A stretch of DNA of 64,000 nucleotides from Alphaproteobacteria bacterium (GTDB lineage: Bacteria; Pseudomonadota; Alphaproteobacteria; CAAHEQ01; UBA3637), in assembly GCA_045598925.1 (NCBI GenBank), contig JAZRVC010000027.1, positions 847 through 64,846 of the forward strand. Direction: 5' to 3'. The notes beneath the pieces are model-generated. The model was not told the DNA's origin. It saw only the letters and a program-made list of their open reading frames with translations, and did not search any database. How positions within the stretch are numbered: position 1 is the first letter of the stretch; each line of letters begins with the position of its first letter. Below are positions 2,691 through 48,079 of the stretch, in pieces. Both the position numbers and the translations under genes were made by a program.

Positions 2691-2720
2691 CTTGACTTTT
2701 GTCAATTTTTGTTATATTAT
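2691..2720 (+). promoter_or_regulatory. Sigma70-like promoter with palindromic operator (copy 1)
   Basis: CTTGACTTTTGTCAATTTTT: -35 TTGACT at 2692..2697, 17-nt spacer, -10 TATTAT at 2715..2720. The -35 is part of the perfect inverted repeat TTGAC-tttt-GTCAA (2692..2705). Confidence 0.55.
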
Positions 2721-2750
2721 AGACAAAGCAATTTAAAAAGGAGGTCTTAT

Positions 2751-3134
2751 ATGGATAAATCCAGTTTTATTTGGGGCGCCGTCGTTGGGGGGCTTGCTTT
2801 ATGGTATTTTATTTCAAAAGATAAAACCAACGAAAAAACAAACGTGGAAATTCTTCCCGTTAAAACAGTTCATGTTCATTCAGAACCTGAATACGTTTCA
2901 CGCAAGACTTATACAGTGCCACAAAACATCACTTATGCCCCCAGACCGGTGGTGCAACAACCTGTGATTTTTAATACCTATACACCTGCCCCTGTTATTG
3001 TGCCCCCTTGTGTGCCAGCGCCTTACTATTATGGGCCCAGACATTTTTACAGACATCATTACTATCATCACTGTCGCCCGCATTTCAGACGTTGCCCCCC
3101 CTATCATTTCCGTCATTACAGACATTGTTGGTAA
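2751..3134 (+). CDS. Small membrane-anchored protein with a Pro/Tyr/His/Arg-rich C-terminus
   Basis: RBS GGAGG at 2740..2744 with ATG at 2751. There is an N-terminal TM segment (FIWGAVVGGLALWYFI). The C-terminus is low-complexity (...PYYYGPRHFYRHHYYHHCRPHFRRCPPYHFRHYRHCW). Confidence 0.6.
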   Translation: MDKSSFIWGAVVGGLALWYFISKDKTNEKTNVEILPVKTVHVHSEPEYVSRKTYTVPQNITYAPRPVVQQPVIFNTYTPAPVIVPPCVPAPYYYGPRHFYRHHYYHHCRPHFRRCPPYHFRHYRHCW

Positions 3135-3214: not shown

Positions 3215-4027
3215 ATGAAAAAAACAAACAAACTTTCTGAAACAAGCAAAAAAGCAATTCGTTATATTGCCTTTGCGACAGGTTTAATGGTTGCGGCTTT
3301 ACCCGGTAAATCCAAGGCCGATTTATTGAACTTTAACGCAGATGTAAACGTTTTAGGTTTAGCAGGCGTCAGTACCGGTGTCAATGTCGGACACGCTATC
3401 AATGCCTATGCCGGTGCCAATGCTTTGGGTATCGGTGGTTCAACAGGCGTCAGCGTTGGTAATGGCAGTTTAGTGGATGTCAATGCCGACGCGAATGTTG
3501 GTCCTTTGGCGGGTGCAAATGCCGGACTCAGTGTTGGCAACGGCGTCAATGCCTATGTAGGCGGTAATGTTATAGGTGTTGCCGGTTCAACAGGCATCAG
3601 CGTTGCTTCCTCAGGTTCAACAGCCGCTTATGCTTACCCAACCACTACAGGTTATTACACAACGATGCCCACACGTCCTGTCAGTTATGCCAGTATGGCC
3701 GTGACACAACCCCGTGTTCAATATGTGCAACCGGCTGTGCGTTATGTGCGTGTGGCGGGGGCGCAACCCGTTCGTTATGTCAGCGCCTCTTCTTACAGAC
3801 CAGCCCCTGTGGCCTATCAAACAGCCCAGGCTCCTGTGACGTCTCAAGGTGGACAACGCGTTGAAGTGCAAACTTATGACAGTTATGCTCATGAAAGCGA
3901 AGATTCTCAACTGACACAAACCGTTCAAAAACGTTATGTGGAAGATCCGGAAAACGGCTATCGTGAACAAGAAGTTCATGCACGTAAAGTGATTATTAAA
4001 CGTCGTGTGTATTACACATATGAATAA
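3215..4027 (+). CDS. Secreted repeat protein with Gly/Ala/Asn-rich and R(Y)V-rich repeats
   Basis: RBS AGGAGG is present. A signal peptide is followed by GVSTGVNVG/GSTGVSVGNG-type repeats and then PVRYV/RVQYVQP repeats. Confidence 0.65.
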   Translation: MKKTNKLSETSKKAIRYIAFATGLMVAALPGKSKADLLNFNADVNVLGLAGVSTGVNVGHAINAYAGANALGIGGSTGVSVGNGSLVDVNADANVGPLAGANAGLSVGNGVNAYVGGNVIGVAGSTGISVASSGSTAAYAYPTTTGYYTTMPTRPVSYASMAVTQPRVQYVQPAVRYVRVAGAQPVRYVSASSYRPAPVAYQTAQAPVTSQGGQRVEVQTYDSYAHESEDSQLTQTVQKRYVEDPENGYREQEVHARKVIIKRRVYYTYE

Positions 4028-4039
4028 GTTTTAAAAACA

Positions 4040-4072
4040 AAAGAAAAGGCCCCTGATTTTAAGGGGTCTTTT
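4040..4072. terminator. Bidirectional rho-independent terminator between convergent genes
   Basis: Hairpin ggcccct-gatttta-aggggtc flanked by T-runs, between the 3215..4027(+) gene and mutL(-). Confidence 0.5.
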
Positions 4073-4073
4073 T

Positions 4074-5831
4074 TTATTTGCGACCGAAAAGTTTTTCTAT
4101 ATCGTCTAGTTTTAAAGTAATATAAGTCGGGCGACCATGAATACATTGACCCGAGGTACCACATTCTTCCATCTGACGCAACAGGGCATTCATTTCATCA
4201 ACCGATAACTCTCGCCCTGCCCTGACCGAACCATGACACGCCATACGGGCACAGATATCTTTCATTTTATCCTTTAACAAAACGGTGTCGTCAAATTCTT
4301 TTAAAGTATCCACCAAATCATGAATAATTTTGGTTAAATCGGTTTTATCCAGCACGGCGGGGATTTCCCGAACCGCAACCGAATCCGTTCCAAAAGGGTC
4401 TATCTGCCACCCCATTTGTTTTAATTCTTCCGCTTTAGAGGTCAATAAAAACACTTCATCCGATTTTAAATCCACAATTTCAGGCACCAGCAACAATTGA
4501 GTTTGTGGATGCTCCCCAAAATTCTTCATCATTTTTTCATAGGTCAAACGTTCATGGGCCGCGTGCTGATCCACAATTAAAACAGCATCCTTGGTTTGGC
4601 TGATAATATAGGTTTTATATAGTTGTGCTTTGGCCAATCCCATCGGGGGAAAATCGGCGGGTTGGACAGGAACGGTTTTCTGTGCAACAGGGGTTGTTTT
4701 TACACTATAACTATCGGACAATTGAAAAGATCTTTGTTCTTGGATAGGTGTATAAGACGGACGAGAAAAATGGGGTGTTTTTTCACTCAAGGAGACAGGG
4801 GTACTCTCTAAAGCACCGATTTTAATCGTGGTGGCTGTTTGATGACCGTGTTCGGCCAACACAGACCGAATCGCCGATACCATTATACCACGAATCCGCC
4901 CAGAATCTGCAAAACGCACTTCTGTTTTCGCGGGCGACACATTCACATCCACTTGATGATTCGGCACACTTAAAAACAATGCCAAGACGGGATAGCCATC
5001 ACTGCCGTGTCCCATCAGACCTTGATAAGCCCCACGAATAGCCCCCAATAAGACCTTATCTTTCACACTGCGCCCGTTCACAAACAGGTATTGATCGGTG
5101 GATGTCGCCCGTGTATAAGTGGGCAAACCCACAAACCCCGATAATTTTATCCCTTCATATTGCGTTTGAATGGGCTAAGCGTTTTCCTGAAATTGATGAC
5201 CGATTACCATAGAAACCCTGTCTATCAAACGATTCGTTATAGGATAGGATAAAAGTTTTTTATGCTCATTTGAAAGCGAAAAGGAAATATCGGGATGACT
5301 CATCGCCAATTTATCCACAATTTCCCTGAGGGCCATTTGCTCACTTTGATCAGATTTTAAAAACTTTAAACGCGCAGGGGTGTTATAAAATAACTCTTTG
5401 ACTTCTACGGTCGTTCCGAAAGGTGCGGAAGCGGGCTGAACGGGACGTTTTTGACCTCCGTCCACACAAATACACCAACCTGAATCTGAATCCTTTTGAC
5501 GTGTGGTAATCGTCATTTTTGAAACAGATGCAATAGACGGCAAGGCTTCCCCGCGAAAACCCAAAAAATTGATATCCAATAAATCATCAGAAGGCAACTT
5601 ACTGGTCGCATGACGTTCCACCGCCAAATTGAGTTCTTCAGGATTCATCCCTTTGCCATTATCCGAAACAGAAAAATAGGCTTTACCGCCTTGTTCCACT
5701 TTAATATCAATACGGGTAGCGCCCGCATCAATGGCGTTTTCAATCAATTCTTTGATGGCACTGGCGGGTCTTTCAACAACCTCGCCCGCCGCAATCTGAT
5801 CAATTAAAATTTGGGGTAAAACACGCAACAT
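4074..5831 (-). pseudogene. mutL: DNA mismatch repair protein MutL interrupted by an in-frame TAG stop
   Basis: The N-terminal ATPase ORF (5175..5831; ...ELIENAIDAGAT...) and the C-terminal ORF (4074..5132) are in the same reading frame. Reading through the TAG at 5175..5177 gives ...VIGHQFQENA*PIQTQYEGIKLSGFVGLPTYTRATSTDQYLFVNGRSV..., which aligns colinearly with the MutL transducer region. Confidence 0.75.
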
Positions 5832-5933
5832 TTGGACACCTTTCTGTTGCTTTAGATTCTACAAAATTTTTATTTAAGAAGCAAGAAAAAATCCCCACTA
5901 AAAAATGGGGATTTAATTTTAACGCTTTAAAAA

Positions 5934-6374
5934 TTAGCCACGTCCTTTACTTAATATTTTATCTATTTGATACAAATCATATCCTTGGCGGACTAATTGA
6001 CGCACTAACCGCACCCTTTCCATACAGGGAAGTTTCAACGCAGTTCTTTTTCTACAACTTTCTGGAGCTTTATGAAATTCTTCCAAAATTACCATTTTTT
6101 CTTTTTTTGTCTTAGCATTTTTTACTGCTTTTACAACCTCATGTCTAGCAAAAGCATCTCTCATTTTCTCCACATCAAATACAATGTTGGACGACCGTTT
6201 ACTATACTCCCTTTTTCTTTTTTCATAGCCACTTTTATCTTTGACACTCCAAGGGAATCCTTGAGAAGTGTTATTTAAGTGAAAATCTACATCTGGCTCA
6301 GAATATCCGAGTTTATTTTCCCCCGAATCAAAAACGGCACCAAAACCGACCAAATGCCCATTAACTGATCTCAT
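5934..6374 (-). CDS. Hypothetical basic protein (146 aa) inserted between uvrB and mutL
   Basis: Complete ORF with an RBS (AAGGA), followed by a hairpin terminator (aaatcccca-ctaaaaaa-tggggattt at about 5885..5915). It is markedly more AT-rich than its neighbours. I could not assign a family. Confidence 0.5.
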   Translation of the reverse strand: MRSVNGHLVGFGAVFDSGENKLGYSEPDVDFHLNNTSQGFPWSVKDKSGYEKRKREYSKRSSNIVFDVEKMRDAFARHEVVKAVKNAKTKKEKMVILEEFHKAPESCRKRTALKLPCMERVRLVRQLVRQGYDLYQIDKILSKGRG

Positions 6375-6469
6375 ATTTATATCCTTTGTTTGTTACAATA
6401 TATTCCATCCACAGGTATATGATACCATAGATTTGTATTTTGTCAACTTATTTTATAAAAAGACAACTT

Positions 6470-8473
6470 TTAATCCCATTCAGCAAGTTCTAAGTCTTGG
6501 AGTTTTTTAATTCTATCGCGAATTTCGGCGGCTTTTTCAAATTCCAAATTTTCGGCCGCTTGAATCATTTTCTTTTTCAATTCTTCAATAGATTCGGGAA
6601 CTTGATCTATTTGTTTAACCGTTGTCCCAGTTAAATCATTAAAGTCTTTAATCAGGTCTGGAATCGCCTTTTGAATGCCTTTTGGGGTAATATGGTTTTC
6701 CAAATTAAAGGCAATTTGCTTTTCACGGCGGCGCGCTGTTTCTGTCAGGGCATAGTTTAATGAGTTTGTCATTTTATCCGCATACAAAATCACACGACCT
6801 TCGGCATTTCTGGCCGCCCGTCCTATTGTTTGAATCAAAGAGGTGGCTGAACGCAAAAAGCCTTCTTTATCGGCGTCCAGTATCGCCACCAAGGATACTT
6901 CAGGAATATCCAATCCTTCCCTGAGCAAGTTGATACCCACCAACACATCAAAGGTTCCCAAGCGTAAATCCCGAATAATTTGAATCCGTTCCAGTGTGTC
7001 AATATCCGAGTGCATATACTTCGCCCTCACCCCGTTTTCATTTAAGTAATCCGTTAAATCTTCCGCCATTTTTTTGGTAAGGGTTGTGACCAAAGTGCGC
7101 TGACCTTTTGCGGCTTGCAGTTGGCATTCGGCGATGAGATCTTCCACTTGGGTTGCCACAGGACGCACCACACATTCGGGGTCTAACAAACCAGTCGGAC
7201 GAATAATTTGCTCACTAAACACCCCCTTTGTTTGTTCCAATTCCCAAGGTCCGGGGGTAGCCGACACAAAAATAGTATCGGGGCGCATTTCGTCCCATTC
7301 TTCAAACTTTAAAGGCCGATTATCCAAGCAACTGGGCAAACGGAATCCATATTCGGCCAAAGTAGATTTTCTGGATCTATCCCCTTTATACATGGCCCCG
7401 ATTTGTGGCACAGTCACGTGGCTTTCATCAATAAAGACCAGCGCATCTTTGGGCAGGTATTCAAACAAAGTCGGGGGGGCTTCCCCTGCTTTTCGTCCTG
7501 TCAAATGACGCGAATAGTTTTCAATCCCTTTGCAAGAACCCGTGGCTTCCATCATTTCCAAATCATAGCGCGTGCGTTGTTCAATGCGTTCGGCTTCCAA
7601 AGGTTGATTGTGTTCCCGATAATAGGCCAATCTGTCTTTCAATTCCGCACGAATTGTTTTAATCGCTTGCGACAATGCGGGACGCGGGGTTACATAGTGG
7701 CTGGCCGGGAAAACGGTGATTTCGGGCAAAGCCATTTTCTTTTTTCCCGTTAAAGGGTCAAATTCTGAAATATCCTCTATCTCATCCCCAAAAAAGGACA
7801 CACGCCATGCCAAATCTTCATAGTGGCTGGGAAATATATCCAACACATCCCCGTTTAAACGAAAACATCCCCGCTGAAAATCAATATCATTTCTTTTGTA
7901 TTGCAATTCGGTCAGGCGATGGGTTAAATCAGCAATATCCACTGAATCGCCTTTTTTAAGGGAAAAGGCCATAGATGAATAACTTTCCGCATCCCCAATA
8001 CCATAAATACAAGACACAGAAGATACCACAATGACATCTCGGCGTTCCAATAAATGACGGGTTGCACTATGGCGCAGGCGGTCAATTTGTTCATTGATAG
8101 CCGAATCTTTTTCAATATAAGTATCTGTCTTGGGAATATAGGCTTCGGGTTGATAGTAATCATAATAAGATACAAAGTATTCCACCGCATTTTCGGGAAA
8201 AAAAGATTTCATTTCGGCATACAGTTGCGCCGCCAAGGTCTTATTGTGGGCTAAAATAAGTGTCGGACGCTTGACCTGTTGAATCACTTGCGCCATTGTA
8301 AAGGTCTTGCCCGAGCCTGTAATACCCAACAGGACTTGATTATGTTGATGGTCTTTCAGGCCTTGAACTAAAGACGCTATCGCTTGCGGTTGGTCCCCAG
8401 CGGGCGCAAAAGAGGACGCCAGTTTAAACTCTGCGTCCCCCTGTAAATTCGGCCGAGTATAAAGCGGAATCAT
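6470..8473 (-). CDS. uvrB: Excinuclease ABC subunit B (UvrB)
   Basis: The product has a Walker A motif ([10 protein letters not shown]), helicase motifs and a C-terminal UVR domain. It is 667 aa. Confidence 0.95.
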
Positions 8474-20805: not shown

Positions 20806-21192
20806 ATGGTTTGGACAGAAGATAAAATTAAAAAATTAAAGAAAATGTGGCAGGCTGAAAAGCCCACCGCCGAAATTGCCAAAATTTTGGGGATGTCAAA
20901 AAATTCAATTATCGGAAAGGTGCATCGCTTAAATTTAAAGACACGCCCTTCACCCATTAAAACGGACACCCGCAAAAAAGTGGCCGCGCCCGTTAAAAAA
21001 GCGGTGGCGGGAAAGGTTCATCTCATTGACCTGAAACTCAATACGTGCCGTTGGCCGATTGGCGACCCTAAGGACGAAGATTTTTGTTTTTGCGGTCAGC
21101 AAACAGTGGCGGGCAAACCTTATTGTATGAAGCATTGTCAGGAAGCCTATTTAAATATGGTTCCTGCGGCGGCAAAATCAGAGAAAAAATAA
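20806..21192 (+). CDS. gcrA: Cell-cycle regulator GcrA
   Basis: MVWTEDKIKKLKKMWQ...IIGKVHRLNL... and C-terminal ...CRWPIGDP...FCFCG...KPYCMKHCQEAY match the GcrA family, which is specific to alphaproteobacteria. Confidence 0.8.
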   Translation: MVWTEDKIKKLKKMWQAEKPTAEIAKILGMSKNSIIGKVHRLNLKTRPSPIKTDTRKKVAAPVKKAVAGKVHLIDLKLNTCRWPIGDPKDEDFCFCGQQTVAGKPYCMKHCQEAYLNMVPAAAKSEKK

Positions 21193-21194
21193 AC

Positions 21195-23735
21195 ATGACT
21201 CAAAGCCCTTCTTGCCTCTGTTTAATTGACGGGTCGGGATATATCTTTCGGGCGTTTTATGCCCTTCCCCCTATGCACAGAAAAGACGGGACACCCACAA
21301 ATGCGGTCTATGGCTTTACGGCCATGATGTTGAATCTTTTACAGGAAAATACCTGTCAAAATCTGGTGGTGGTCTTTGATGCCAAACGCCAAAATTTCAG
21401 AAACGAAATTTATCCCGCCTATAAGACAAACAGAAAAGAAGTGCCGGCAGAACTGATTCCTCAATTTTCTTTAATCCGCCAGGCCTGTGATGCCCTGAAT
21501 GTGCCTTGGGTTGAAAAAGAAGGCTATGAAGCGGATGATCTGATTGCCAGTTATGCCCAAATTGCCAAAAATCAAGGGATGCGGGCGCGTGTCATTTCGG
21601 CCGATAAAGATTTAATGCAACTCATCAATGACAACACCACGATGTATGACCCGATGAAGAAAAAGGAAATCACCCCGCAAGAAGTGATTCAAAAGTTTGG
21701 GGTGCCCCCGACTCAAGTGGTGGAAGTGCAAGCCTTAATGGGGGATAGCACAGACAACATCCCCGGCGCCACGGGTATAGGCCCCAAAACAGCCACCCAA
21801 TTAATTCAACAATTTCAAACAATTGAAAACCTGTATAACAACCTGCCTCAATTAAAAAAAGGGAAACAACTGGACAACCTGATTCAAAGTAAAGAAAATG
21901 TCTTTATTTCCAAAAAATTGGCCAGCCTTTGCCCTGATGTGCCTTTGGATAATGATTTAGAAAAATTCAAAAGACGTCCTTTGGAATCTGATAAAATTAT
22001 TGCTTTTTTACAAGAAAACGAATTTCCAAGTTTAATGAAACGCTTACCTAATCAAGATAAAAATAGGGCTGAAGTGTCTGTGCAACCACTCAAAACCGCC
22101 GAAGAAATCAAGGAAGTTGTTCAACGTTTAGATTCTTTTGCTTTTGTTTTAAACATAAATAAAACGGGAAACATTACAACCCTTCAAATTTCGGATGATC
22201 AAAAGGTCTATTTAATCGGTGAAGAAAAAGAAGAAATTCAAAATGACTTGTTTGCCCCTGCCACAGAAAGTATTTCCAATGAAATCTGGCAAGTATTAAA
22301 AATGCTCTTTGAATCTGACAAAATGAAAATCGGTGTGGATATTAAACAGCAAAAACACCTGTTAGCCCAAAAAGGTATTCAACTTATCCCTCCCTATGAC
22401 GATTGTTTATTGATGAATTATCTGATCAGCGGGAATAAAGAATTAGAAGATATCCCCCAGATTTCTTTGTTTCAAAAATACCAAGAATTAAAAGAGGTTT
22501 TGCGTCAAGAAAACTTAAGTTCTTTATACGAAAAAATGGATTTACCCTTGATTGATTTGTTGTTTCAGATGGAAGAAAACGGCATTTTCATCAATCGTGA
22601 AAAAATAAAAAAATTAAAAGATGAATTTGAGTTAAAAATCAATAATTTAACAAAAGAAATTCATCTGGAAGCAGAAGAAGAATTTAACATCAATTCCACT
22701 CAACAATTGGGCAAAATTTTATTTGAAAAAAGGAATTTATCGGGTGGAAAGAAAGGTCCTTCCGGTCATTGGGTGACAGATGTAAAAGTTTTGGAAAAAT
22801 TAGCCGAAGAAAATGGGGATAAATTGTCCGAATTGATTTTACAATATCGGGGAATCGCCAAACTGCAATCAACCTATATTGACGACCTGTTGGAACGCAG
22901 CCAAATCAGCCCCCGCATTCACACAACCTTTTCTATGGTTGCGACAAACACGGGACGGTTGGCGTCTTCTAACCCCAACTTGCAAAACATCCCTGTTCGG
23001 TCTGAAGAAGGAAAAGCCATCCGCGAAGCCTTTGTGGCCGAACCAGGCAAGGTCTTAGTTTCGGCGGACTATTCGCAAATTGAATTACGGCTGATTGCCC
23101 ATGTGGCAAAGGTCAAAAAATTACAAGAGTCTTTTATTAAAAATGAAGATATTCACGCCCGCACCGCCAGTCAGATTTTAGGGATTCCTTTGGAACAAGT
23201 GTCCCCCGACCAGCGCAGAAGTGCTAAAGCGGTCAATTTCGGTATTATTTATGGTATTTCAGGCTTTGGGCTGGCCCGCAATTTACATATTGACCGCACG
23301 ACCGCCAATAACTATATTCGGGCCTATTTTGAACAATACCCCGAAATCAAAGAATATATGGACAGAACAGAAAAGTTTGTGGATGAACATGGCTATGTGC
23401 TGACACCTTTCGGGCGGAAGATTTTTATAGAAGGCTTAAGCAATTCGGCGACACGGGCTTTTGCCCATCGGGCGGCCATCAATGCCCCGATTCAAGGGGG
23501 AGCCGCCGATATTATGAAATTGGCGATGAATAAAGTGAATCAAGCCCTTAAAGAATCAGGCTTACACGCCCTACCCCTTTTACAGGTGCATGACGAATTG
23601 ATTTTTGAAGTGTCCGAAAATGAAGCCGAAAGTTTGGCGAAGTTAGTCAAAGAGCAAATGGAAAATGTGGTGCAACTTTCTGTTCCCTTGATTGCCGAAA
23701 CAGGTATCGCCACAAACTGGAAAGACGCACATTAA
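21195..23735 (+). CDS. polA: DNA polymerase I
   Basis: The product has a 5' nuclease domain (MTQSPSCLCLIDGSGYIFRAFYALPP...) and polymerase motifs A (DYSQIELR), B (RRSAKAVNFGIIYG) and C (QVHDEL). Start is at the ATG at 21195, after the gcrA stop. The track start 21084 is rejected. Confidence 0.95.
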   Translation: MTQSPSCLCLIDGSGYIFRAFYALPPMHRKDGTPTNAVYGFTAMMLNLLQENTCQNLVVVFDAKRQNFRNEIYPAYKTNRKEVPAELIPQFSLIRQACDALNVPWVEKEGYEADDLIASYAQIAKNQGMRARVISADKDLMQLINDNTTMYDPMKKKEITPQEVIQKFGVPPTQVVEVQALMGDSTDNIPGATGIGPKTATQLIQQFQTIENLYNNLPQLKKGKQLDNLIQSKENVFISKKLASLCPDVPLDNDLEKFKRRPLESDKIIAFLQENEFPSLMKRLPNQDKNRAEVSVQPLKTAEEIKEVVQRLDSFAFVLNINKTGNITTLQISDDQKVYLIGEEKEEIQNDLFAPATESISNEIWQVLKMLFESDKMKIGVDIKQQKHLLAQKGIQLIPPYDDCLLMNYLISGNKELEDIPQISLFQKYQELKEVLRQENLSSLYEKMDLPLIDLLFQMEENGIFINREKIKKLKDEFELKINNLTKEIHLEAEEEFNINSTQQLGKILFEKRNLSGGKKGPSGHWVTDVKVLEKLAEENGDKLSELILQYRGIAKLQSTYIDDLLERSQISPRIHTTFSMVATNTGRLASSNPNLQNIPVRSEEGKAIREAFVAEPGKVLVSADYSQIELRLIAHVAKVKKLQESFIKNEDIHARTASQILGIPLEQVSPDQRRSAKAVNFGIIYGISGFGLARNLHIDRTTANNYIRAYFEQYPEIKEYMDRTEKFVDEHGYVLTPFGRKIFIEGLSNSATRAFAHRAAINAPIQGGAADIMKLAMNKVNQALKESGLHALPLLQVHDELIFEVSENEAESLAKLVKEQMENVVQLSVPLIAETGIATNWKDAH

Positions 23736-23815: not shown

Positions 23816-26038
23816 CTACTCCCTACACACAGCATGGCCATTATAGTTGTTGCGACCTGCGTTACCCTCATAACCATCGTAGGCCACAAGGCGCGCGTAG
23901 CAGGAAGTATCTCTAAGCGGTGTACTCGTCCAAATATAGTTAGCAACTGCTGCACCAAACATTTTTCGTAAAGTGTTGGCCCGCGTTTTATCTGTGGGAA
24001 TTACACCTGTATATGTTTGAACCGCACTATTTACTTCATCCAATGTAACAAGAGATAAATTCTGAGCTTGACACCAATTATTGGCACTATACCAACTCAT
24101 CATTGTGTTACTATAGGTCCAACCCGTAAATGCAGTGGGATTCTCTTCAACTGTAGAAACAACTCCCCCCATATAATCTGATACTTGCTTACATGTCCCT
24201 ATCGTAGAAACATCACAACCATTAATAACAAGGCGTACACCCGTTGTTAGAAGACAGAACTCTCCCGGATTCGGACAATCCACATTTGTGGCACAACCTT
24301 CTGGTTTATAACATTCCCCCAATGTAGTGCCATCTGCAGAACAAGTATATCCTTTGGCACAACAAACCGCCGTATCACCAATACCACATTTTACCTGACC
24401 ATTAGCACATTCACTGCACTTATAATAAGTTGTCGTGGGTGTCGTACAGGTTGTTTCTTTTCCTTCTGCACATTCTGGTATTGATTCAGTTATTGTCCAA
24501 CTATCATCACAGGTATTAGCAACACATTCGTCCCCTTCTAAATGATACCCTGTATTACATTCACTGCACTTATAATAAGTTGTCGTGGGTGTCGTACAGG
24601 TTGTTTCTTTTCCTTCTGCACATTCTGGTATTGATTCAGTTATTGTCCAACTATCATCACAGGTATTAGCGATACATTTTCCCTCATCATTTTCATAATA
24701 TCCAGAGACACAGTCCCCACACTTTTGAGATATAGAAGGTTTTTGTTTTGGTACCCTATGCGCTTCTTCACAAGAATTAAAACATACACGACTATATTTC
24801 GTATTTGTCGTAGTATCACAATAGGCTTTTTCTTTTTCTGTATATGTACAGGCCGGAACCGGCATAGATGGGAAAACAGCACAAATCCCATCTGCACAAA
24901 TCTTTTGACAATCGTTACCACAATCTGAATTTTTTTCACAAGGAACGACACAATCTTGTATTGATTCATCATAATTTTCTATAGCCTGATTACAGAAGCA
25001 AGAAACCTCTCCTTCTTCTGTCATCATCGTTTTAATAAATCCACCTTTTCCAACAGGAGAACCAAGTGCACACATATTAGAAATACATTTACCTTTATCA
25101 TTTTCATAATATCCAGAGAGACAATCCCCACATTTAGAGGATATATGTGCATCTTTTTCCCGATGCAGTGCGTTACAAGAAGTACAAGCATAATTGTGAT
25201 ACTCATTTAACTCTGTATCACAGTAGGCATTTACACGAATAGTATAATCAGATCCCCCCATACCATTACAAGATGGAATGAGACCAAAATTACGTCGTTC
25301 TTCACAAATTCCCTCACTACACTCTTCTTCGCAATCTGGTTTACAATGAAGATTAGTCATACATTGAACACACTGACTTCCATTCCAATAAGGGGTATCA
25401 CCTGAACACAGGATACAACGTCCCTCTATATCATGATATTCTCCCACACAATCTCCGCATTCGCCATTCGTTCCGTCTTGACGATTTAAAGAGGCGCAAC
25501 TGACACAGCCAGTTTGGGTGTCGTTTAAGGCGGTACCGTCTTCACAAACACAACTTAAATTTTCCCAAGTACTGCCGATATTTTTAAAGCCTTCCTGACA
25601 AGCAAAACTTTCATTAGAGCAATCCGCATGATTTGGACACGCATAGCATTTATCTGTGCCACCAGGGGCAAAAGTACCTTCATCACACGCCACACATTCG
25701 GCCTTGCCCGCCACAGAGTGTGTTCCGGGGCCACACAAGGTACATTCATTTTGGCCATCGCTATAATAGCCCGTGGGACAAGGCTCACAGTTGCCGTCTT
25801 TGGCCACATATCCCAAATCACACAAGCACACACCGAACTCTTTATAGACGTTATCGCCCACGCAGGCACCCTCTTTTAATCTTAACTTCGGGCAATTCCC
25901 AACCCCGCATAATTCCACCGCAATAGACTTCACCCCATTGGGATTTGTGGCTTTTGTTTTACCGCCAAAAAGACCACCGCCCGCCAACACAACCGTGGAT
26001 ACCAAAACCGTACTAAACAATAAAACAACATTTTTCAT
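23816..26038 (-). CDS. Large secreted cysteine-rich protein (GCC2/GCC3- and EGF-like repeats) with a C-type-lectin-like C-terminal domain
   Basis: 740 aa. A Sec signal peptide is followed by CxxCPxGxY...CxxC repeats along most of the length. The C-terminus ...MMSWYSANNWCQAQNLSLVTLDEVN...SCYARLVAYDG...GHAVCRE fits a C-type lectin domain (CTLD). There is an RBS (GAGGAT). It is a paralogue of 32933..34387 and of the partial gene at 1..1105. Confidence 0.7.
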   Translation of the reverse strand: MKNVVLLFSTVLVSTVVLAGGGLFGGKTKATNPNGVKSIAVELCGVGNCPKLRLKEGACVGDNVYKEFGVCLCDLGYVAKDGNCEPCPTGYYSDGQNECTLCGPGTHSVAGKAECVACDEGTFAPGGTDKCYACPNHADCSNESFACQEGFKNIGSTWENLSCVCEDGTALNDTQTGCVSCASLNRQDGTNGECGDCVGEYHDIEGRCILCSGDTPYWNGSQCVQCMTNLHCKPDCEEECSEGICEERRNFGLIPSCNGMGGSDYTIRVNAYCDTELNEYHNYACTSCNALHREKDAHISSKCGDCLSGYYENDKGKCISNMCALGSPVGKGGFIKTMMTEEGEVSCFCNQAIENYDESIQDCVVPCEKNSDCGNDCQKICADGICAVFPSMPVPACTYTEKEKAYCDTTTNTKYSRVCFNSCEEAHRVPKQKPSISQKCGDCVSGYYENDEGKCIANTCDDSWTITESIPECAEGKETTCTTPTTTYYKCSECNTGYHLEGDECVANTCDDSWTITESIPECAEGKETTCTTPTTTYYKCSECANGQVKCGIGDTAVCCAKGYTCSADGTTLGECYKPEGCATNVDCPNPGEFCLLTTGVRLVINGCDVSTIGTCKQVSDYMGGVVSTVEENPTAFTGWTYSNTMMSWYSANNWCQAQNLSLVTLDEVNSAVQTYTGVIPTDKTRANTLRKMFGAAVANYIWTSTPLRDTSCYARLVAYDGYEGNAGRNNYNGHAVCRE
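24407..24670. repeat. Near-perfect intragenic tandem duplication (150-bp period, about 1.75 copies)
   Basis: About 110 nt at 24411..24520 recur at 24561..24670. The duplication encodes two copies of CANTCDDSWTITESIPECAEGKETTCTTPTTTYYKCSEC in the 23816..26038 protein. Confidence 0.8.
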
Positions 26039-26118: not shown

Positions 26119-26152
<34 letters not shown>

Positions 26153-26302
26153 ACTTTTTTCACACGAATTGCAAGCCTTTTTAACACATTTTTTCATATT
26201 TTTTATCCTTTTTTTACACTTTACCCACCCTTAAAAAAATAGTCAAGAAAAAAGTGGTATTTTTTATTAAAATCTGATACTGGTAAATTAAAAGGAGTTA
26301 AA

Positions 26303-26836
26303 ATGGCACATCAACTGATTACAATTTCCGGAGAATTAGGCAGTGGAAAATCAACCGTAGCAACTATGTTGGCCGAAAAATTGGGCTATGCGTATTATTC
26401 CACAGGGATGGCGCAACGTCATATTGCCGATTTAAAAGGTCTTTCCACCTTACAATTGAACGAACTTTCACAAACCGACCCTTCCATTGATAAAGAAATT
26501 GATGGCATTTACAAAAAAAAGCCTTGGGGAAAAAAGCCTTGTGTGGTGGATAGTCGGCTGGCTTTTCATTTTCTGCCCGATTCATTTAAAATCAAATTAA
26601 AAGTCAATTTAAAGGTCGCAGCCAAACGGGTCTTTGATGAAAAAAGACCTCATGAAAAATATCAGACCTTAAAACAAGCGCAAGAGTTTTTACAAAAGCG
26701 CGCCGAACTGGAAAAAGAAAGATTTATTACGACTTATCAAATAGATATTTCAGACGATTCTTTATTTGATTTAGTGATAGATACCAGCGCGCTGTCCCCC
26801 GAAGAGGTCTGTCAAAAAATCATTCAAGCACTTTAA
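26303..26836 (+). CDS. Cytidylate-kinase-family (short archaeal-type, family 2) P-loop kinase
   Basis: MAHQLITISGELGSGKSTVATMLAEKLGYAYYSTG... 177 aa. RBS AAAGGAG. Confidence 0.6.
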   Translation: MAHQLITISGELGSGKSTVATMLAEKLGYAYYSTGMAQRHIADLKGLSTLQLNELSQTDPSIDKEIDGIYKKKPWGKKPCVVDSRLAFHFLPDSFKIKLKVNLKVAAKRVFDEKRPHEKYQTLKQAQEFLQKRAELEKERFITTYQIDISDDSLFDLVIDTSALSPEEVCQKIIQAL

Positions 26837-32932: not shown

Positions 32933-34387
32933 TTATTCACACATGACATAGGTGCCGTTCATAGCACGAGTACCATAATCTACCCATTCACTATTATATT
33001 GCATTCCAAGGTTCCATGCATAAGTTGTTGTGTGATTACTGGTGGTCGTAATAGTTCCATCTTCACCATAACGTGTCCAAAATGCACCCGTTGTACCAAC
33101 CGCCTTATATAACTTATTATACCCTCTTCCACTAAAAACAGCATTTAAGGGAAGACCTGCCAAAGGACTAATAATTAAACCAGAAGTACCTTTTCCCACA
33201 CACATGGAATTTGCGGCGAACCAATTCATCATAGTTTTATAATAAGGATGTCCTCCTTCCAATGTTGTTCCCCAACCAGAGGTCGGAACTGATTGACATG
33301 TTCCTTCACCACCACACATCCCGGGTTCCTCACAAAAACAAGCAACACATGTCGGTCTGCAATAATAGCCCAACCCACATTGATTTGTTATATAATCATC
33401 ACAAGAACTCGGTTGCGGCTGACAGCCTGAGGCTGTATAAACATCCCCCGATGTGTTGCATTTACAAATGACTGTATCAGGTGCCACTCCAACACTTCCC
33501 GCATAACCGCCGGCCCCATCAATACTTGTTCCTTCTGGACATAGAATGACACAAGTATCCTCTTCCCTTTTAAATCCGCTATCACACACAATTTCCCCTG
33601 TTGTACAGGTGGCGTGTTCAGGACAGATGGCGCAAGCACCAGAAGTATTACAGTAAGCATTTTCCCCTTCACAGGTAATGGGTGTTGTCGTAATACACCC
33701 TGTATCGGGGTCTATCGCGTTTTCGGTAATGGCACAACTTTCTGAAGGTTCGACACACGCTTGACAGACACCTTCGGATTCGTAATAATTATCTATACAC
33801 CCATCGCAATTGCCGTTTGTACCGTCCAAACGCTTGAGAGAGGCACAACTGACACAACCGTCTTGTGTTTCATTTAAGGTGGTACCGTCTTCACAAACAC
33901 AACTTAAATTTTCCCAAGTACTGCCGATATTTTTAAACCCTTCCTGACAAGCAAAACTTTCATTAGAGCAATCCGCATGATTTGGACACGCATAGCATTT
34001 ATCTGTGCCACCCGGGGCAAAAGTACCTGCATCACACGCCACACATTCGGCCTTGCCCGCCACAGAGTGAGTGCCTGGGCCACACAAGGTACATTCGTTT
34101 TGGCCATCACTATAATAGCCCGTGGGACAAGGCTCACAGTTGCCGTCTTTGGCCACATATCCCAAATCACACAAGCACACACCGAACTTTTTATAGACGT
34201 TATCGCCCACACAGGCACCCTCTTTTAATCTTAACTTCGGGCAATTCCCAACCCCGCATAATTCAACCGCAATAGACTTCACCCCGTTGGGATTTGTGGC
34301 TTTTATTTTACCCCCAAACAGAGCGCCGCCCGCCAACACAGCGGTAGAAACTAAAACAGTAGTGGCTAATAAAATAATACGTTGCAT
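32933..34387 (-). CDS. Secreted cysteine-rich protein with a C-type-lectin-like C-terminus (paralogue of 23816..26038)
   Basis: The N-terminal ~170 aa are nearly identical to the 23816 gene product, and the nucleotide sequence is also near-identical (compare 33904..34330 with 25555..25980). The C-terminus reads ...MMNWFAANSMCVGKGTSGLIIS...YVMCE. The gene starts 18 nt downstream of mlaC with RBS AAGGA. Confidence 0.7.
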   Translation of the reverse strand: MQRIILLATTVLVSTAVLAGGALFGGKIKATNPNGVKSIAVELCGVGNCPKLRLKEGACVGDNVYKKFGVCLCDLGYVAKDGNCEPCPTGYYSDGQNECTLCGPGTHSVAGKAECVACDAGTFAPGGTDKCYACPNHADCSNESFACQEGFKNIGSTWENLSCVCEDGTTLNETQDGCVSCASLKRLDGTNGNCDGCIDNYYESEGVCQACVEPSESCAITENAIDPDTGCITTTPITCEGENAYCNTSGACAICPEHATCTTGEIVCDSGFKREEDTCVILCPEGTSIDGAGGYAGSVGVAPDTVICKCNTSGDVYTASGCQPQPSSCDDYITNQCGLGYYCRPTCVACFCEEPGMCGGEGTCQSVPTSGWGTTLEGGHPYYKTMMNWFAANSMCVGKGTSGLIISPLAGLPLNAVFSGRGYNKLYKAVGTTGAFWTRYGEDGTITTTSNHTTTYAWNLGMQYNSEWVDYGTRAMNGTYVMCE

Positions 34388-35873: not shown

Positions 35874-36935
35874 ATGGTAAATTTTTTCAAAAAAATTTTA
35901 ATATCAGGGATGTTTTTCTATCCCCAATTGACTTTGGCCCAAGATGTAGATATTCCCGAATTTATGGACGAAGATGAACCCGAAATATATGAGGAAGAAG
36001 CGGCACCGCAACAAAGCGTTCCGACACAAACAACCTCGGCCACTACTTTCACCGTCGGGCAAGCCACAATCACACAAAAACCCCAAGAAAAAAATCCGAA
36101 TTTAGGCCGCAACGAAACACCGTTGGAACGGTTGGTCTATTCGCATTCTCCACTGCCAGAACTGAGTATTGATTTAACAAAAAAAGAACCCGAATCCGTC
36201 CCGCAAGTCAAACAATGGGATCCTATTTCTTTGACACCGACTTTGGAACAAGAAATGCCCGCTTTGACAGACATGGTGGACGAAACCGTATTGATTAAAG
36301 GGACGACAAATTCTTTGGATGCACGGGATTATGAGTTGGAAGGTTTTGCCTTGGGTATGACACCTTTGGATGTCGGAAAAATTGCCCTGAAAAATGGGTA
36401 TAAAATTACAAAATCGCAAAAAGAATTCCCCTTGTTTCTTACCACACGTTATGAACAAGAATGTCGTTTAGAGGGGCTGTATTTACCGGCAGATATTCGT
36501 GCCTGTATTCGTCAAAAAGGAAAAGAAAACGATACGATTTTCTTAAAAACAATGACCATTACGAAACCCGGGAATAAAGAATCCTATGTGTTTGAATTTA
36601 CTTCGCCTGCCACAGAAAATCGGGCGTGGCGCATTACCTATTCTAACAAAGGGGATAACTCTTTAAATTTCACGCAAATCAATACCTCAAAAAAACTCAG
36701 TCGCCGTGATCAATTTTTCCAAGCCGTTTTTAATAAATTCGGATACCCCAGCGACAGCACCAACTTTATCTGGGGGGCAAAAGATGACGCTTTTATGCAA
36801 GTTTCTATGTATGGCAGTAATTATGATGCGAAAATTACTTTGACAGACACCCTGCTGTCTGATGAAGATTATTTTGCCGCCAAAGAATGGATAGACGAGC
36901 AACCCTCTTTAGAAAAATTTGATTTTGGAGAATAA
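35874..36935 (+). CDS. Hypothetical secreted protein
   Basis: 353 aa with a signal peptide (MFFYPQLTLAQ). No family assigned. Confidence 0.5.
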   Translation: MVNFFKKILISGMFFYPQLTLAQDVDIPEFMDEDEPEIYEEEAAPQQSVPTQTTSATTFTVGQATITQKPQEKNPNLGRNETPLERLVYSHSPLPELSIDLTKKEPESVPQVKQWDPISLTPTLEQEMPALTDMVDETVLIKGTTNSLDARDYELEGFALGMTPLDVGKIALKNGYKITKSQKEFPLFLTTRYEQECRLEGLYLPADIRACIRQKGKENDTIFLKTMTITKPGNKESYVFEFTSPATENRAWRITYSNKGDNSLNFTQINTSKKLSRRDQFFQAVFNKFGYPSDSTNFIWGAKDDAFMQVSMYGSNYDAKITLTDTLLSDEDYFAAKEWIDEQPSLEKFDFGE

Positions 36936-38834
36936 ATGGAACAGGATTTAAATTCTTTTTTAATCAACTATACGTCTTTAGCCAAAGAAGGCAAACTAAC
37001 CAACCTGATCGGGCGGGAAAAAGAATTAGAGCGTCTGATTCATATCCTGCTCAGAAACACAAAAAACAATCCTGTGATTGTCGGGCCCAGCGGTATTGGA
37101 AAAACGGCCTTGATGGAAGGGTTGATTGCCTTTATGTGCAGCGAAAGCGCCCCCGAATATATGCAAACCCGTGAAGTGGTGGGATTGGATGTGGCCAAAA
37201 TTATGTTGGCCAGTAAAAGTGATGCCGAATATGAAGAACTGACCAAAAATGTGTTGCAATTAGTGGTAGATTCCAATCATCAAAAACTGCTCTATTTAAA
37301 AGATATCAGTTTTTTGGTACCGATGGAAACAAACCCCGAAAATCGTGAGCCGGCTAAATTTTTAAAACTCTGTCTGTTGGCAGGACAAGTCAATTGTCTT
37401 ATTGAAACAGATACCTTAAATTTCGTGGGACATTTGGAAAAAGACACAGCCGTTATGGGATGTTTACAATCTTTATTATTGGAAGAACCCACATTAGAAG
37501 AAAGCATTCAAATTTGCACCGCCCGAAAGGGGGCCTTGGAAGAACACTATGCCATTCAAATTCCGGATGAAACCGTGAAGGTTGCTTGTCAATTGACGGG
37601 ACGCTATATCAAACAGCGGGCGTTTCCAGAAAAAGCCTTAGACTTATTGGATGATTCGGCGAGCCTTCTGATGATGGACATTGCCCGTGGGGATGTCGCC
37701 GGTGAATCCAACACCCTAACCCAAGATTTTTGTTTCAGAACGATTGCCGATTGGACAGGGATTCCCGTGGAAAAAGTAGATGCGGAAGACAGGGAACGTT
37801 TGGCCAAAGCAGAAGACCTTTTACGCCAACGGGTCGTGGGGCAAGATAATGCCGTGAAAGTGGTAGCGGATGCTTTACGTCGTTCTCGGTCGGGATTACA
37901 AGACCCGAATCGTCCGATTGGATCCTTTTTGTTTGTTGGTACAACCGGTGTCGGTAAGACGGAATTGGCCAAATCTTTGGCGGACTTTATGTTTAATGAT
38001 GAAACCGCCCTACTTCGTATTGATATGTCCGAATATATGGAAAGGTCTTCGGTGACACGTTTGATTGGCCCCCCTCCTGGTTCACCGGGATTTGAACACG
38101 GCGGTCTGTTGACCGAAGCGGTTCGTTTAAAGCCTTTCCAAGTGGTGTTATTTGACGAAATTGAAAAAGCGCATTTGGATATTCTAAACTTGATGTTGCA
38201 ACTGTTGGATGAAGGACGACTCACCGACAGTAAAGGCGTGACAGTGGATTTCAGAAATACGATTATTATTTTGACCTCTAACGTGGGGGCGACATTGCCC
38301 AGTTATCAGCGGGTGGCAAAACTGACCGAATACTTCAGACCCGAATTTTTAAACCGTTTGGACGATATTGTATCCTTCCACCAACTCAAACCCGAACACT
38401 TGCGTCAAATTGTGGAAATTCATTTGAATAAGTTATTAAAACGCGCCAAGGCTTTAAACTATCTGGTCACCGTGGATGAAAAAGCAAAAGATTGGTTTGT
38501 GGATGAAGTCTTTACCTCTAAATTCGGGGTGCGTGCCTTAAAGCGTTTAATCCAAGAACAGGTGGAAACACCGCTCTCTTTATTGATTATGCAGGATAGA
38601 ATCCACCCGGGTCAACCTGTGTTTTTAAATGTGGATGAATCGGGCAGAAAATTACGCATCTATGCCAAACCGGCCACAGCAAATGCGCCCGCTATGGAAA
38701 TTAAAACACCCGAAAAGACCGCCGAACCGGATGAGGAAGACCCTATTGAAGAGGCAGAATCTCCCTCCGACCCCGAAGAAATTATAGAAGATAATTCAAA
38801 TGAGCAAAACGAACCTGACCACCCAACTGCTTGA
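36936..38834 (+). CDS. Divergent ClpA/ClpB-family AAA+ ATPase with degenerate NBD1, no N-domain and no long M-domain
   Basis: NBD1 keeps Walker A (GPSGIGKTA), but its Walker B is degenerate (LYLKDI instead of ILFIDE). NBD2 is intact (VVGQDNAV..., GTTGVGKTELAK, VVLFDEIEKAH, SNVGA). The C-terminal tail is acidic. Confidence 0.7.
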   Translation: MEQDLNSFLINYTSLAKEGKLTNLIGREKELERLIHILLRNTKNNPVIVGPSGIGKTALMEGLIAFMCSESAPEYMQTREVVGLDVAKIMLASKSDAEYEELTKNVLQLVVDSNHQKLLYLKDISFLVPMETNPENREPAKFLKLCLLAGQVNCLIETDTLNFVGHLEKDTAVMGCLQSLLLEEPTLEESIQICTARKGALEEHYAIQIPDETVKVACQLTGRYIKQRAFPEKALDLLDDSASLLMMDIARGDVAGESNTLTQDFCFRTIADWTGIPVEKVDAEDRERLAKAEDLLRQRVVGQDNAVKVVADALRRSRSGLQDPNRPIGSFLFVGTTGVGKTELAKSLADFMFNDETALLRIDMSEYMERSSVTRLIGPPPGSPGFEHGGLLTEAVRLKPFQVVLFDEIEKAHLDILNLMLQLLDEGRLTDSKGVTVDFRNTIIILTSNVGATLPSYQRVAKLTEYFRPEFLNRLDDIVSFHQLKPEHLRQIVEIHLNKLLKRAKALNYLVTVDEKAKDWFVDEVFTSKFGVRALKRLIQEQVETPLSLLIMQDRIHPGQPVFLNVDESGRKLRIYAKPATANAPAMEIKTPEKTAEPDEEDPIEEAESPSDPEEIIEDNSNEQNEPDHPTA

Positions 38835-39795
38835 TTGGTATAAAATCAATGGAAGGGAACTGCCTTGGCGTCAAAAAGGCGGTGCCCATGAAAATGCCTA
38901 TGCCGTGTGGATCAGTGAAATTATGTTGCAACAAACGACAGTGGCCACTGTCATTGATTACTTTTTAAAGTGGATGAAAAAATTCCCCACGATTGAATCT
39001 TTGGCCAAAGCCGATGAACAGGAAGTATTATTGGCTTGGCAAGGAATGGGATATTACACGCGCGCCCGTAAAATTCACGAATGCGCCAAAGTTTTAATGA
39101 AAGAATATAATGGTCAAATTCCTGATGAGCGAGAAAAATTGTTGCACTTACCCGGAATCGGGCCTTATTCGGCCAGCAGTATTTGTTGTTTTGCCTTTAA
39201 TCAGCCCGAAACGGTTGTGGATGGAAACGTGATTCGGGTAATTGCCAGATTAAAAGGAATGACCGAACAAGTGGATGCGAAAACCATTTATCCGATTGCC
39301 CAAAAACTGACCAGTCCTACACACGGGGCCGATTATGCCAGCGCAATTATGGATTTAGGGGCCACCGTTTGTACCCCGACGAATCCGAAGTGTATTCTCT
39401 GCCCTTGGCGGGAAAGTTGTATTGCCCGCAAAAAAGGAATTCAAGAACAAATCCCCGTCATTAAAAAACTCGCAAAAAAAGAAGTAGTGGGGCAAGTCTT
39501 TCTGATACAAAATCAAAAAGGCGAATATTTGATTCGCAAAAGAGTAGAAAAAGGACTTTTACACGGTCTGTGGGAATTTCCCTGGGTAAAAGAAGCGGGG
39601 ACAAAAACGGGTCCGACTGTTTCCCACACCTTTACACATTTTAAATTGATTTTAGAAGTCGTTAAATCAAACAAAAACAATAATTTATTTAAACAAGTTA
39701 AAGAAAATTTTCCCAATGTTATTTGGGTCAAAAAAGAAGATTTTTACACCTACCCCTTTTCCACTTTAATGCAAAAAGTCATTAAGAAAATATAA
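38800..39795 (+). CDS. mutY: A/G-specific adenine DNA glycosylase MutY
   Basis: ...LLDWYKINGRELPWRQ..., HhH-GPD motif (LLHLPGIGPYSASSI), 4Fe-4S Cys cluster (CTPTNPKCILCPWRESC) and a C-terminal NUDIX-like domain. The exact start is uncertain. Confidence 0.85.
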   Translation: MSKTNLTTQLLDWYKINGRELPWRQKGGAHENAYAVWISEIMLQQTTVATVIDYFLKWMKKFPTIESLAKADEQEVLLAWQGMGYYTRARKIHECAKVLMKEYNGQIPDEREKLLHLPGIGPYSASSICCFAFNQPETVVDGNVIRVIARLKGMTEQVDAKTIYPIAQKLTSPTHGADYASAIMDLGATVCTPTNPKCILCPWRESCIARKKGIQEQIPVIKKLAKKEVVGQVFLIQNQKGEYLIRKRVEKGLLHGLWEFPWVKEAGTKTGPTVSHTFTHFKLILEVVKSNKNNNLFKQVKENFPNVIWVKKEDFYTYPFSTLMQKVIKKI

Positions 39796-46840: not shown

Positions 46841-48079
46841 ATGATAAAAAAGCCCGAACTTCTTTTACCCGCCGGCACATTGGAAAGATTAAAGACCGCT
46901 TTTATGTATGGGGCGGACGCTGTCTATGCAGGCGTGCCGACTGTCAGTTTGCGCAATAAGACCTCTATCACAATTGACGAGATGAAAACGGGGATTGAAT
47001 ATGCGCATCATTTGGGCAAAAAAGTCTATCTGACCATCAACCTTTTTACCCACAATGCCGATATTCCAAAATTGCAAGAGTTTGTGGCGACATTGAATAC
47101 ATTAAATCCGGACGGGGTGATTATTGCCGACCCCGGGGTGTTTGATTATGTAAAAGAACATTGTCCCCAAATTCCGCGCCACATTTCAACACAGGCCAAC
47201 GTATGTTCTGCCTTGACCGTCAATTATTGGAAAAAACAAGGGGCCAGTTTGGTGGTATTGGGGCGTGAAACTCCGCTTAAAGAAATTAAAGAAATCCGCA
47301 ACCAATGCCCCGATATTCGCTTGGAAATGTTTGTGCATGGGGCTTTATGTATCAGTTATTCGGGGCGGTGTCTGCTGTCCAACTTTTTAACAGGACGCAG
47401 TGCCAACAAAGGCAATTGCGCCCACACCTGTCGATGGAAATACAAAGTCTATTTGGAAGAAGAAAATCGCCCAAATGAATTGATGGAAATCAGTGAAGAT
47501 AGCCATGGCACCTATATTATGAATTCAAAAGATTTATGTTTGTTGGATAGGCTGGATGATATTCTGCCCATTGGCATTGATTCTTTTAAAATTGAAGGAC
47601 GCAATAAGTCGGAATACTATGTGGCCGTGGCTGCCCGTGCCTATCGCGCCGCCATTGATGCTTGGTTTGAAAACCCAAAAAAATGGAAGGCGGATGAGTT
47701 TAAACAAGAACTACTCACTTTACAATGTCGGGGCTATACCACGGGCTTTTTGGATGGTAATGCGGGGCCCGAAGCCCATAACTATACAGTGTCGGGGTCC
47801 AGCGGTCTTTGGCGCTATGCGGGACAGGTATTGGAACAAACGGGCAATCGTCTGACTTTGCTCGTCAAAGACAAAATCACAATCGGAACCAAGTTGGATA
47901 TCCTGTTGCCAAATCAATGGGCGCCTTATTCTTTTGTGGTAAAAGAAATGTATCATCCCCACACAGACACGTTCGTGGAACAAATTTCCCCAGGGAAAGT
48001 GGATCAAAAAATTGATGTGGTCTTACCCCAAGAAATTCCGGTTCCCCCTCTTTCAGTCATCAGAACAAAAATCGGATAG
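46841..48079 (+). CDS. Peptidase U32 family protein
   Basis: MIKKPELLLPAGTLERLKTAFMYGADAVYAG... and a conserved Cys cluster (CISYSGRC). 412 aa. Confidence 0.85.
   Translation: MIKKPELLLPAGTLERLKTAFMYGADAVYAGVPTVSLRNKTSITIDEMKTGIEYAHHLGKKVYLTINLFTHNADIPKLQEFVATLNTLNPDGVIIADPGVFDYVKEHCPQIPRHISTQANVCSALTVNYWKKQGASLVVLGRETPLKEIKEIRNQCPDIRLEMFVHGALCISYSGRCLLSNFLTGRSANKGNCAHTCRWKYKVYLEEENRPNELMEISEDSHGTYIMNSKDLCLLDRLDDILPIGIDSFKIEGRNKSEYYVAVAARAYRAAIDAWFENPKKWKADEFKQELLTLQCRGYTTGFLDGNAGPEAHNYTVSGSSGLWRYAGQVLEQTGNRLTLLVKDKITIGTKLDILLPNQWAPYSFVVKEMYHPHTDTFVEQISPGKVDQKIDVVLPQEIPVPPLSVIRTKIG

Follow-up and report, generated by a model that had tools for sequence, protein, structure and literature searches.

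A candidate mutator allele of mutL: one in-frame amber codon in an otherwise intact gene of an uncultured alphaproteobacterium

Introduction

Mismatch-repair-deficient hypermutators with truncating lesions in mutL are well documented in the literature (e.g. PMC2937033). For example, the hypermutator isolate 22a of Pseudomonas aeruginosa, from cystic fibrosis, has a C>T change at position 1474 of mutL that creates a TGA codon, and this case has been confirmed by complementation (PMC2937033). Suspected hypermutators with mutations in mutL have also been seen directly in the gut metagenomes of cholera patients (PMC8407408). More generally, nonsense and frameshift alleles of mutL and mutS in natural isolates have been documented for decades, and the event considered here is of this known kind.

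The locus lies in a stretch of assembled DNA of 64,000 nucleotides, referred to as the window, from an alphaproteobacterium. As in the P. aeruginosa mutators (PMC2937033), mutL is cut short by one point mutation and is intact elsewhere, and loss of mismatch repair with a raised mutation rate would be expected. Unlike isolate 22a, the host is an uncultured bacterium of gut type, known from sequence alone and from one assembly, and the stop falls earlier, at codon 219 of 585, in the N-terminal domain.

The gene otherwise has the layout of the endonuclease-type MutL proteins of Bacillus subtilis and Neisseria (C-terminal domains 3gab/3kdk and 3ncv; the N-terminal LN40 fragment of Escherichia coli is represented by 1b63/1bkn), with a GHKL ATPase, a transducer, a linker and MutL_C. 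The motifs DQHA(X)2E(X)4E, CxHGRP and FxR and the clamp-binding motif QxxLxP all occur in it and agree exactly with the clade consensus. In contrast to these proteins, the frame is interrupted here and only the first 218 residues would be made as encoded.

Split mutL genes also occur in other public assemblies of Alphaproteobacteria. Three short N-terminal MutL products on long contigs were checked, and all three proved to be internal interruptions, by a frameshift in loci L019 and L020 and by an in-frame TGA in L021. The last of these is an alphaproteobacterial metagenome-assembled genome (GCA_009929265.1, SAAU01000001.1) with its TGA at 3934..3936, after ...RFQKEASV; in L020 the C-terminal part of mutL is fused to a TctC-family ORF. 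The three resemble the present locus in that an N-terminal ATPase ORF and a C-terminal ORF stand mid-contig in place of a single mutL frame, but the position and type of lesion differ, and they are independent events that do not share the stop. The frameshifts in L019 and L020 may be long-read assembly errors.

The mutL reading frame and its amber codon

The main features of the gene are as follows.

4074..5831, minus strand: complete mutL frame, 585 codons and terminal TAA, with one interruption at codon 219
5177..5175, minus strand: in-frame amber TAG, codon 219 of mutL, read directly from the sequence
5178..5831, minus strand: N-terminal product as encoded, 218 amino acids, GHKL ATP-binding subdomain only (Pfam HATPase_c_3 and HATPase_c)
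4074..5174, minus strand: untranslated remainder of mutL, 366 codons (Pfam DNA_mis_repair 16-118/119 and MutL_C 2-142/142)

Translation from 5831 to 4074 gives 585 codons with a single internal stop and no indel; the 218-residue ORF (5175..5831) shares its frame with the segment 4074..5174. The minus-strand context of the stop is CAG GAA AAC GCT TAG CCC ATT CAA ACG. It is a lesion of the substitution type, outside any homopolymer or repeat. When the gene is translated through, with X at the stop, the product aligns over 100% of its length with the 120 full-length MutL proteins listed as homologues. The best matches are at 84% and 81% identity (E = 0), and there is no gap at the stop column in any of the 120. 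This ungapped, full-length alignment means that the two ORFs are not a chance juxtaposition.

Domain matches follow the same order along the gene. HATPase_c_3 is matched in the N-terminal part (E = 3e-15), and DNA_mis_repair (PF01119, E = 4e-29) lies 3' of the TAG, where it is encoded but not translated, as does MutL_C (PF08676, 2-142/142, E = 5e-43). The TAG falls about 15 profile positions into DNA_mis_repair, the transducer, and the downstream fragment matches this profile from position 16 of 119 onwards. The untranslated remainder thus contains most of the transducer, with the PAK lysine K302, as well as the linker and the MutL_C dimerisation/endonuclease domain. In place of the uninterrupted frame of about 580-620 amino acids expected of the MutL/MLH family, the gene has a TAG at codon 219. 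By descent the locus is a mutL gene, and in the assembly it takes the form of a null allele or pseudogene. A preliminary description had called the gene MutL, parted into two same-frame ORFs by a single in-frame TAG at 5175-5177 with no frameshift, and each of these points is borne out by the domain matches, the alignment and the translation.

Conservation of the rest of the gene

The remainder of mutL is intact. ATPase motifs I-IV (ExxxN, DNGxG [family DxGxG], GFRGEAL and GT), the endonuclease motif DQHAAHERLTYE (of the DQHA(X)2E(X)4E type), the clamp-binding motif QLLLVP and the ACH, CIHGRP and FGR motifs all equal the consensus of the 120 homologues. The transducer lysine motif SPAKTEVRF aligns with HPAKHEVRF of E. 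coli, with K302 matching K307. The C-terminal dimerisation/endonuclease motifs (DQHA(X)2E(X)4E, CxHGRP and FxR) are invariant in 120 of 120 homologues, and the C-terminal domain matches the solved MutL endonuclease domains 3ncv and 3gab.

Among 161 columns that are invariant in the homologues the window deviates once, by N11D, which is unremarkable since at least one deviation is seen in 18 of the 120 homologues. At this codon (5799..5801) the window has Asp and all 120 homologues have Asn (ILIDQIAAGEV vs LINQIAAGEV), and with the stop this makes two strictly conserved sites at which mutL has changed.

Rates of change give a similar picture. Pairwise dN/dS between the window and its nearest relatives is 0.09-0.12, alike in the N- and C-terminal parts, compared with 0.05-0.10 for pairs of intact genes; as dS exceeds 1, these ratios show only that most of the history of mutL passed under purifying selection. 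In three-taxon site counts with L011 as outgroup, the numbers of lineage-unique residues in MutL are 29 for the window and 29 for its sister L010, and in Sua5 they are 6 and 5. A longer MutL branch had been suggested by local-alignment identities and is gone in the three-taxon count. By these comparisons mutL is not decaying, and the lesion is either very young relative to the split from the closest known relative or not real.

The site counts also differ along the gene. Over the N-terminal 218 codons the three lineages (window, L010 and L011) are equidistant, with 15, 16 and 13 unique residues, whereas C-terminal mutL (14, 13 and 34) and Sua5 (6, 5 and 28) clearly group the window with L010. 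This uneven tree may reflect mosaicism or recombination within mutL.

The stop codon column in related genes

In the 120 homologues the column of the stop is occupied by Leu (67), Val (34) or Ile (19), never by a gap or a stop, and all 120 listed relatives keep a full-length mutL. Comparison with close relatives at the DNA level found a sense codon at this site in 14 of 14 loci (L001-L014). The nearest have GCT TTG CCT (L001 and L011-L014) or GCT TTA CCT (L010), where the window has GCT TAG CCC. With TTG or TTA in the nearest relatives, one T>A transversion of TTG suffices to give TAG. The named matches belong to uncultured Alphaproteobacteria. Gut samples (human gut of the Hadza, caecum of roe deer and buffalo) are the source of many of the related loci.

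Context of the locus

Several genes of DNA repair lie within the window, and elements that may control mutL expression flank the gene.

6470..8473: uvrB, intact
21084..23735: polA, intact
38800..39795: mutY, intact
5856..5884, minus strand: mutL promoter-like element, TTGCTT-17 nt-TAGAAT (read from the sequence and aligned with the uvrB-mutL spacer of L011)
4050..4066, minus strand: terminator-like hairpin just past the mutL TAA

The genes recO, nth and ruvX in the window are also intact, and the neighbours of mutL are ordinary, intact housekeeping genes. The putative promoter falls below the threshold of a consensus scan and is conserved with L011 (TTGATT ... TAGAAT). Since this element is retained, mutL is probably still transcribed.

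The gene order uvrB, mutL, two fast-evolving small ORFs and sua5 is common to the relatives, the exception being an ORF of 146 amino acids between uvrB and mutL (5934..6374, minus strand; unit 5889..6446). It has a promoter-like site close to consensus, TTGACA-16-TATCAT with TG (6446..6419), and a terminator-like hairpin with an 11-bp stem (5914..5889). In L001, L011, L012 and L014 the ORF is missing, and about 62 bp separate uvrB from mutL; searches of Pfam and PHROGs gave no match to it, and tblastn found no counterpart in any related locus examined. It looks like a lineage-specific inserted transcription unit. The two small ORFs that adjoin mutL (2709..3134 and 3215..4027, plus strand) have no Pfam match; His, Tyr and Pro are abundant in one, and Gly, Ala and Val in the other, whose N-terminal half is repetitive. 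They are syntenic in the relatives and evolve very fast, at 39-68% identity vs 94% for the flanking Sua5 and UvrB.

Predicted consequences for the protein

A lysine of the transducer subdomain is needed for ATP hydrolysis, as established by structural work on LN40, and the C-terminal domain of MutL gives dimerisation and, in bacteria that lack MutH, a nicking endonuclease. Against solved N-terminal structures of E. coli MutL, the stop aligns at about Leu225, immediately past the ATP-binding subdomain, and the lysine that aligns with E. coli Lys307 (window K302) lies 83 residues further on. Since the ATPase lysine, the linker and the endonuclease domain all come after the stop, the 218-residue product should be null.

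One possible site of re-initiation lies shortly downstream.

5130..5132, minus strand: in-frame GTG, possible re-initiation codon, 14 codons after the TAG, with a Shine-Dalgarno (SD)-like duplex of -5.6 kcal/mol

Gene callers place the start of a 352-residue product (P0241) at this GTG, and the strength of its SD-like GGGG (-5.6 kcal/mol) is the median of 46 real starts. A duplex of -4 kcal/mol is reached at about 17% of random positions, and one of -6 kcal/mol at about 5%. The preliminary description saw no obvious restart ribosome-binding site (RBS), which needs qualifying: a match of median strength is there, and it is probably incidental, since the GTG and its SD lie inside the coding sequence of the conserved motif SGFVGLP, which is present in intact relatives. 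An evolved restart signal at GTG 5132 was ruled out, the 'RBS' being explained by the conserved coding sequence. Re-initiation here is unlikely to restore MutL function; near-cognate low-level read-through, or re-initiation at this GTG, could leave some residual MutL activity.

A recent null allele as the probable explanation

The explanation that we favour, and consider probable, is a recent TTG>TAG nonsense mutation by which mutL has become a null (mutator) allele. One T>A transversion would have turned the conserved hydrophobic codon 219, ancestrally TTG for Leu, into TAG. Ribosomes would stop at this codon and release a 218-residue GHKL fragment, which would be without the transducer subdomain and its ATPase-completing lysine, the linker, and the C-terminal dimerisation/endonuclease domain. 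A cell without functional MutL would be deficient in mismatch repair and would show a mutator phenotype. The event would be very recent, later than essentially all of the divergence from the nearest known relative, and the allele would belong to a strain or population, as in natural mutators, rather than reflect long-term loss of the gene. Mutator status goes with a loss-of-function lesion in mutS, mutL, mutH or uvrD; here there is a nonsense codon before the transducer, linker and C-terminal domain of mutL, from which we infer loss of function, a null phenotype and a raised mutation rate. In this respect, no footprint of hypermutation was found in the 64-kb window, in the form either of another broken gene or of lineage acceleration in Sua5 or MutL, and a mutator state would therefore be extremely young, or not real.

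Alternative explanations

The rival that deserves most attention is an artefact of assembly or consensus, by which the organism would read TTG, a sense codon, at this site, with the A at 5176 being an error of base calling or polishing, or a minority variant fixed in the metagenome-assembled consensus. We regard this as rather unlikely, at a level that nevertheless carries weight. Apart from the stop, mutL is flawless and statistically indistinguishable from functional orthologues, as an error in a functional gene would look, and the missing footprint of hypermutation fits the same view, as do the technical-looking split mutL genes of other public assemblies, namely the frameshifts in L019 (contig suffix 'np1212') and L020. 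Furthermore, a single NCBI contig is all that is known of the species. In a collection of 15 billion proteins, both mutL fragments (the 218-residue P0121 and the 352-residue P0241) are singletons from that contig, which has 65,104 bp and evidently gave rise to the window. No second copy of the species was found by exact-product look-ups with the 218-residue fragment, UvrB and the adjacent 270-residue ORF, by scanning metagenome contigs for the DNA pattern with the stop codon left free (0 matches), or by protein-guided scans of genome and metagenome contigs, which gave nothing above 80% identity (best match 80%). With one assembly of the species in the searched collections, an error in the consensus keeps some probability. 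Against it, the lesion is a clean substitution outside homopolymers and repeats, and no frameshift or internal stop occurs in any of about 56 other ORFs in the 64 kb, from which the error rate of the assembly looks low; mutL nonsense alleles are, moreover, a well-documented natural event. Sequencing error, which the preliminary description listed as an alternative, thus stays in play, with the single assembly and the perfect remainder of the gene on one side and the clean substitution and the unbroken ORFs on the other. Among the options given there, a loss-of-function or mutator allele is the best supported.

The other alternatives take the TAG as real. Programmed decoding of the TAG, by a suppressor tRNA, insertion of the pyrrolysine type, code reassignment or stimulated read-through, would give full-length MutL, and we consider it extremely improbable. 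TAG-C is a comparatively weak context for termination in E. coli, and since the TAG here is followed by C, a basal level of read-through is conceivable. The stop is, however, absent from this column in the 120 homologues and the 14 mutL loci, and TAG serves as a normal stop in this DNA. Among 58 non-overlapping ORFs the stops are TAA in 39, TGA in 15 and TAG in 4, one of the last being that within mutL. A U32 peptidase gene (46841..48079), complete in its domains, ends in TAG, which genuinely terminates it: the match to the C-terminal domain profile is complete (3-83/83), and 4 nt further on, at 48083, comes the start of an unrelated alpha/beta-hydrolase gene. These two different genes are the only other same-frame pair separated by TAG in a stop-to-stop scan of ORFs of 90 codons or more, which found no second gene split by an in-frame TAG in the 64-kb window; no other conserved gene there has an in-frame TAG, and genes with Pfam matches have essentially complete domain coverage. 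A search of the 64-kb window for suppressor tRNAs found only tRNA-His(GTG) and tRNA-Glu(TTC), and no family related to Pyl is among the Pfam matches across the window. Nor is there significant RNA structure after the stop: a 121-nt segment beginning 3 nt before the TAG folds at -34.4 kcal/mol, compared with a mean of -29.6 for shuffled sequences (z = -1.39; 22 of 200 shuffles as good). Recoding or read-through, as raised in the preliminary description, is not borne out by these results. A split but functional MutL, in which ribosomes stop at the TAG and restart at GTG 5132 and the 218-residue ATPase re-associates with a 352-residue protein (transducer, linker and endonuclease), would draw on the position and median-strength SD-like match of that GTG and on the retained promoter-like element. 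It seems very improbable: the apparent start signal is coding sequence for SGFVGLP found in intact relatives, and its strength is to be set against the share of random positions that come near it. In addition, 13 conserved transducer residues (codons 220-232) would be lost, the cut, within the LN40 fold, separates the ATP-binding subdomain from the lysine that completes the active site, and no listed relative is split at the same site. Slightly less remote, although still quite improbable, is a real amber tolerated through a low level of full-length or two-piece MutL, from read-through at TAG-C or re-initiation at GTG 5132. An old pseudogene within a general erosion of repair genes, in the reduced genome of a host-restricted lineage, would be consistent with the low G + C content (40.9%) and with gut-associated, uncultured alphaproteobacterial relatives. 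Such erosion has scarcely any probability given a single lesion, no excess of change at conserved sites, dN/dS of about 0.1, the even relative-rate count of 29 vs 29, and full-length uvrB, recO, nth, polA, mutY and ruvX; the 120 listed relatives all keep full-length mutL, and the earlier suggestion of host-restricted loss does not stand.

Other features of the window

A perfect (TG)14.5 tract at 26121..26149 and, at 26178..26219, about 4 copies of the degenerate 11-nt repeat TTTTTTACACA lie in a 265-bp spacer between divergent genes. The spacer is flanked by an ORF for a Cys-rich, TNFR/ELAPOR-like protein of 740 amino acids (23816..26038, minus strand) and a cytidylate-kinase-like gene (26303..26836, plus strand), and is a candidate for a phase-variable promoter region. 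The stability of the TG tract would depend on mismatch-repair status, and a link of mutL loss to slippage of the (TG)14 repeat is plausible in principle.

The 740-residue ORF and one of 484 residues (32933..34387, minus strand) have the same short ELAPOR1/TNFR-like module at residues 78-110. Both carry similar embedded shadow ORFs of 104 amino acids, and one of the two large ORFs ends in the rare TAG. The common module and shadow ORFs suggest that the two are paralogues that share an N-terminal region. Elsewhere (35874..38834, plus strand), a 353-residue ORF that matches nothing in Pfam or PHROGs is linked through a TAAATG junction, without change of frame, to the ORF of a 632-residue double-AAA+ protein of the Clp/Hsp100 type, which is without the usual N-domain and long M-domain. 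The two may form an unusual two-gene module.

Significance

For annotation, the locus should be labelled mutL with an internal stop (pseudogene or null allele), not as two genes, and with no recoding. If the amber proved to be leaky, it would represent a mutator state in a gut commensal that a single base change can revert, a tunable switch of mutation rate rather than a dead gene. If the base call is right and mutL carries a recent null allele, the assembly would have caught a natural mutator strain or population, deficient in mismatch repair, very soon after the knock-out. Mutator strains of this kind bear on the speed at which gut bacteria adapt and on the stability of simple repeats.
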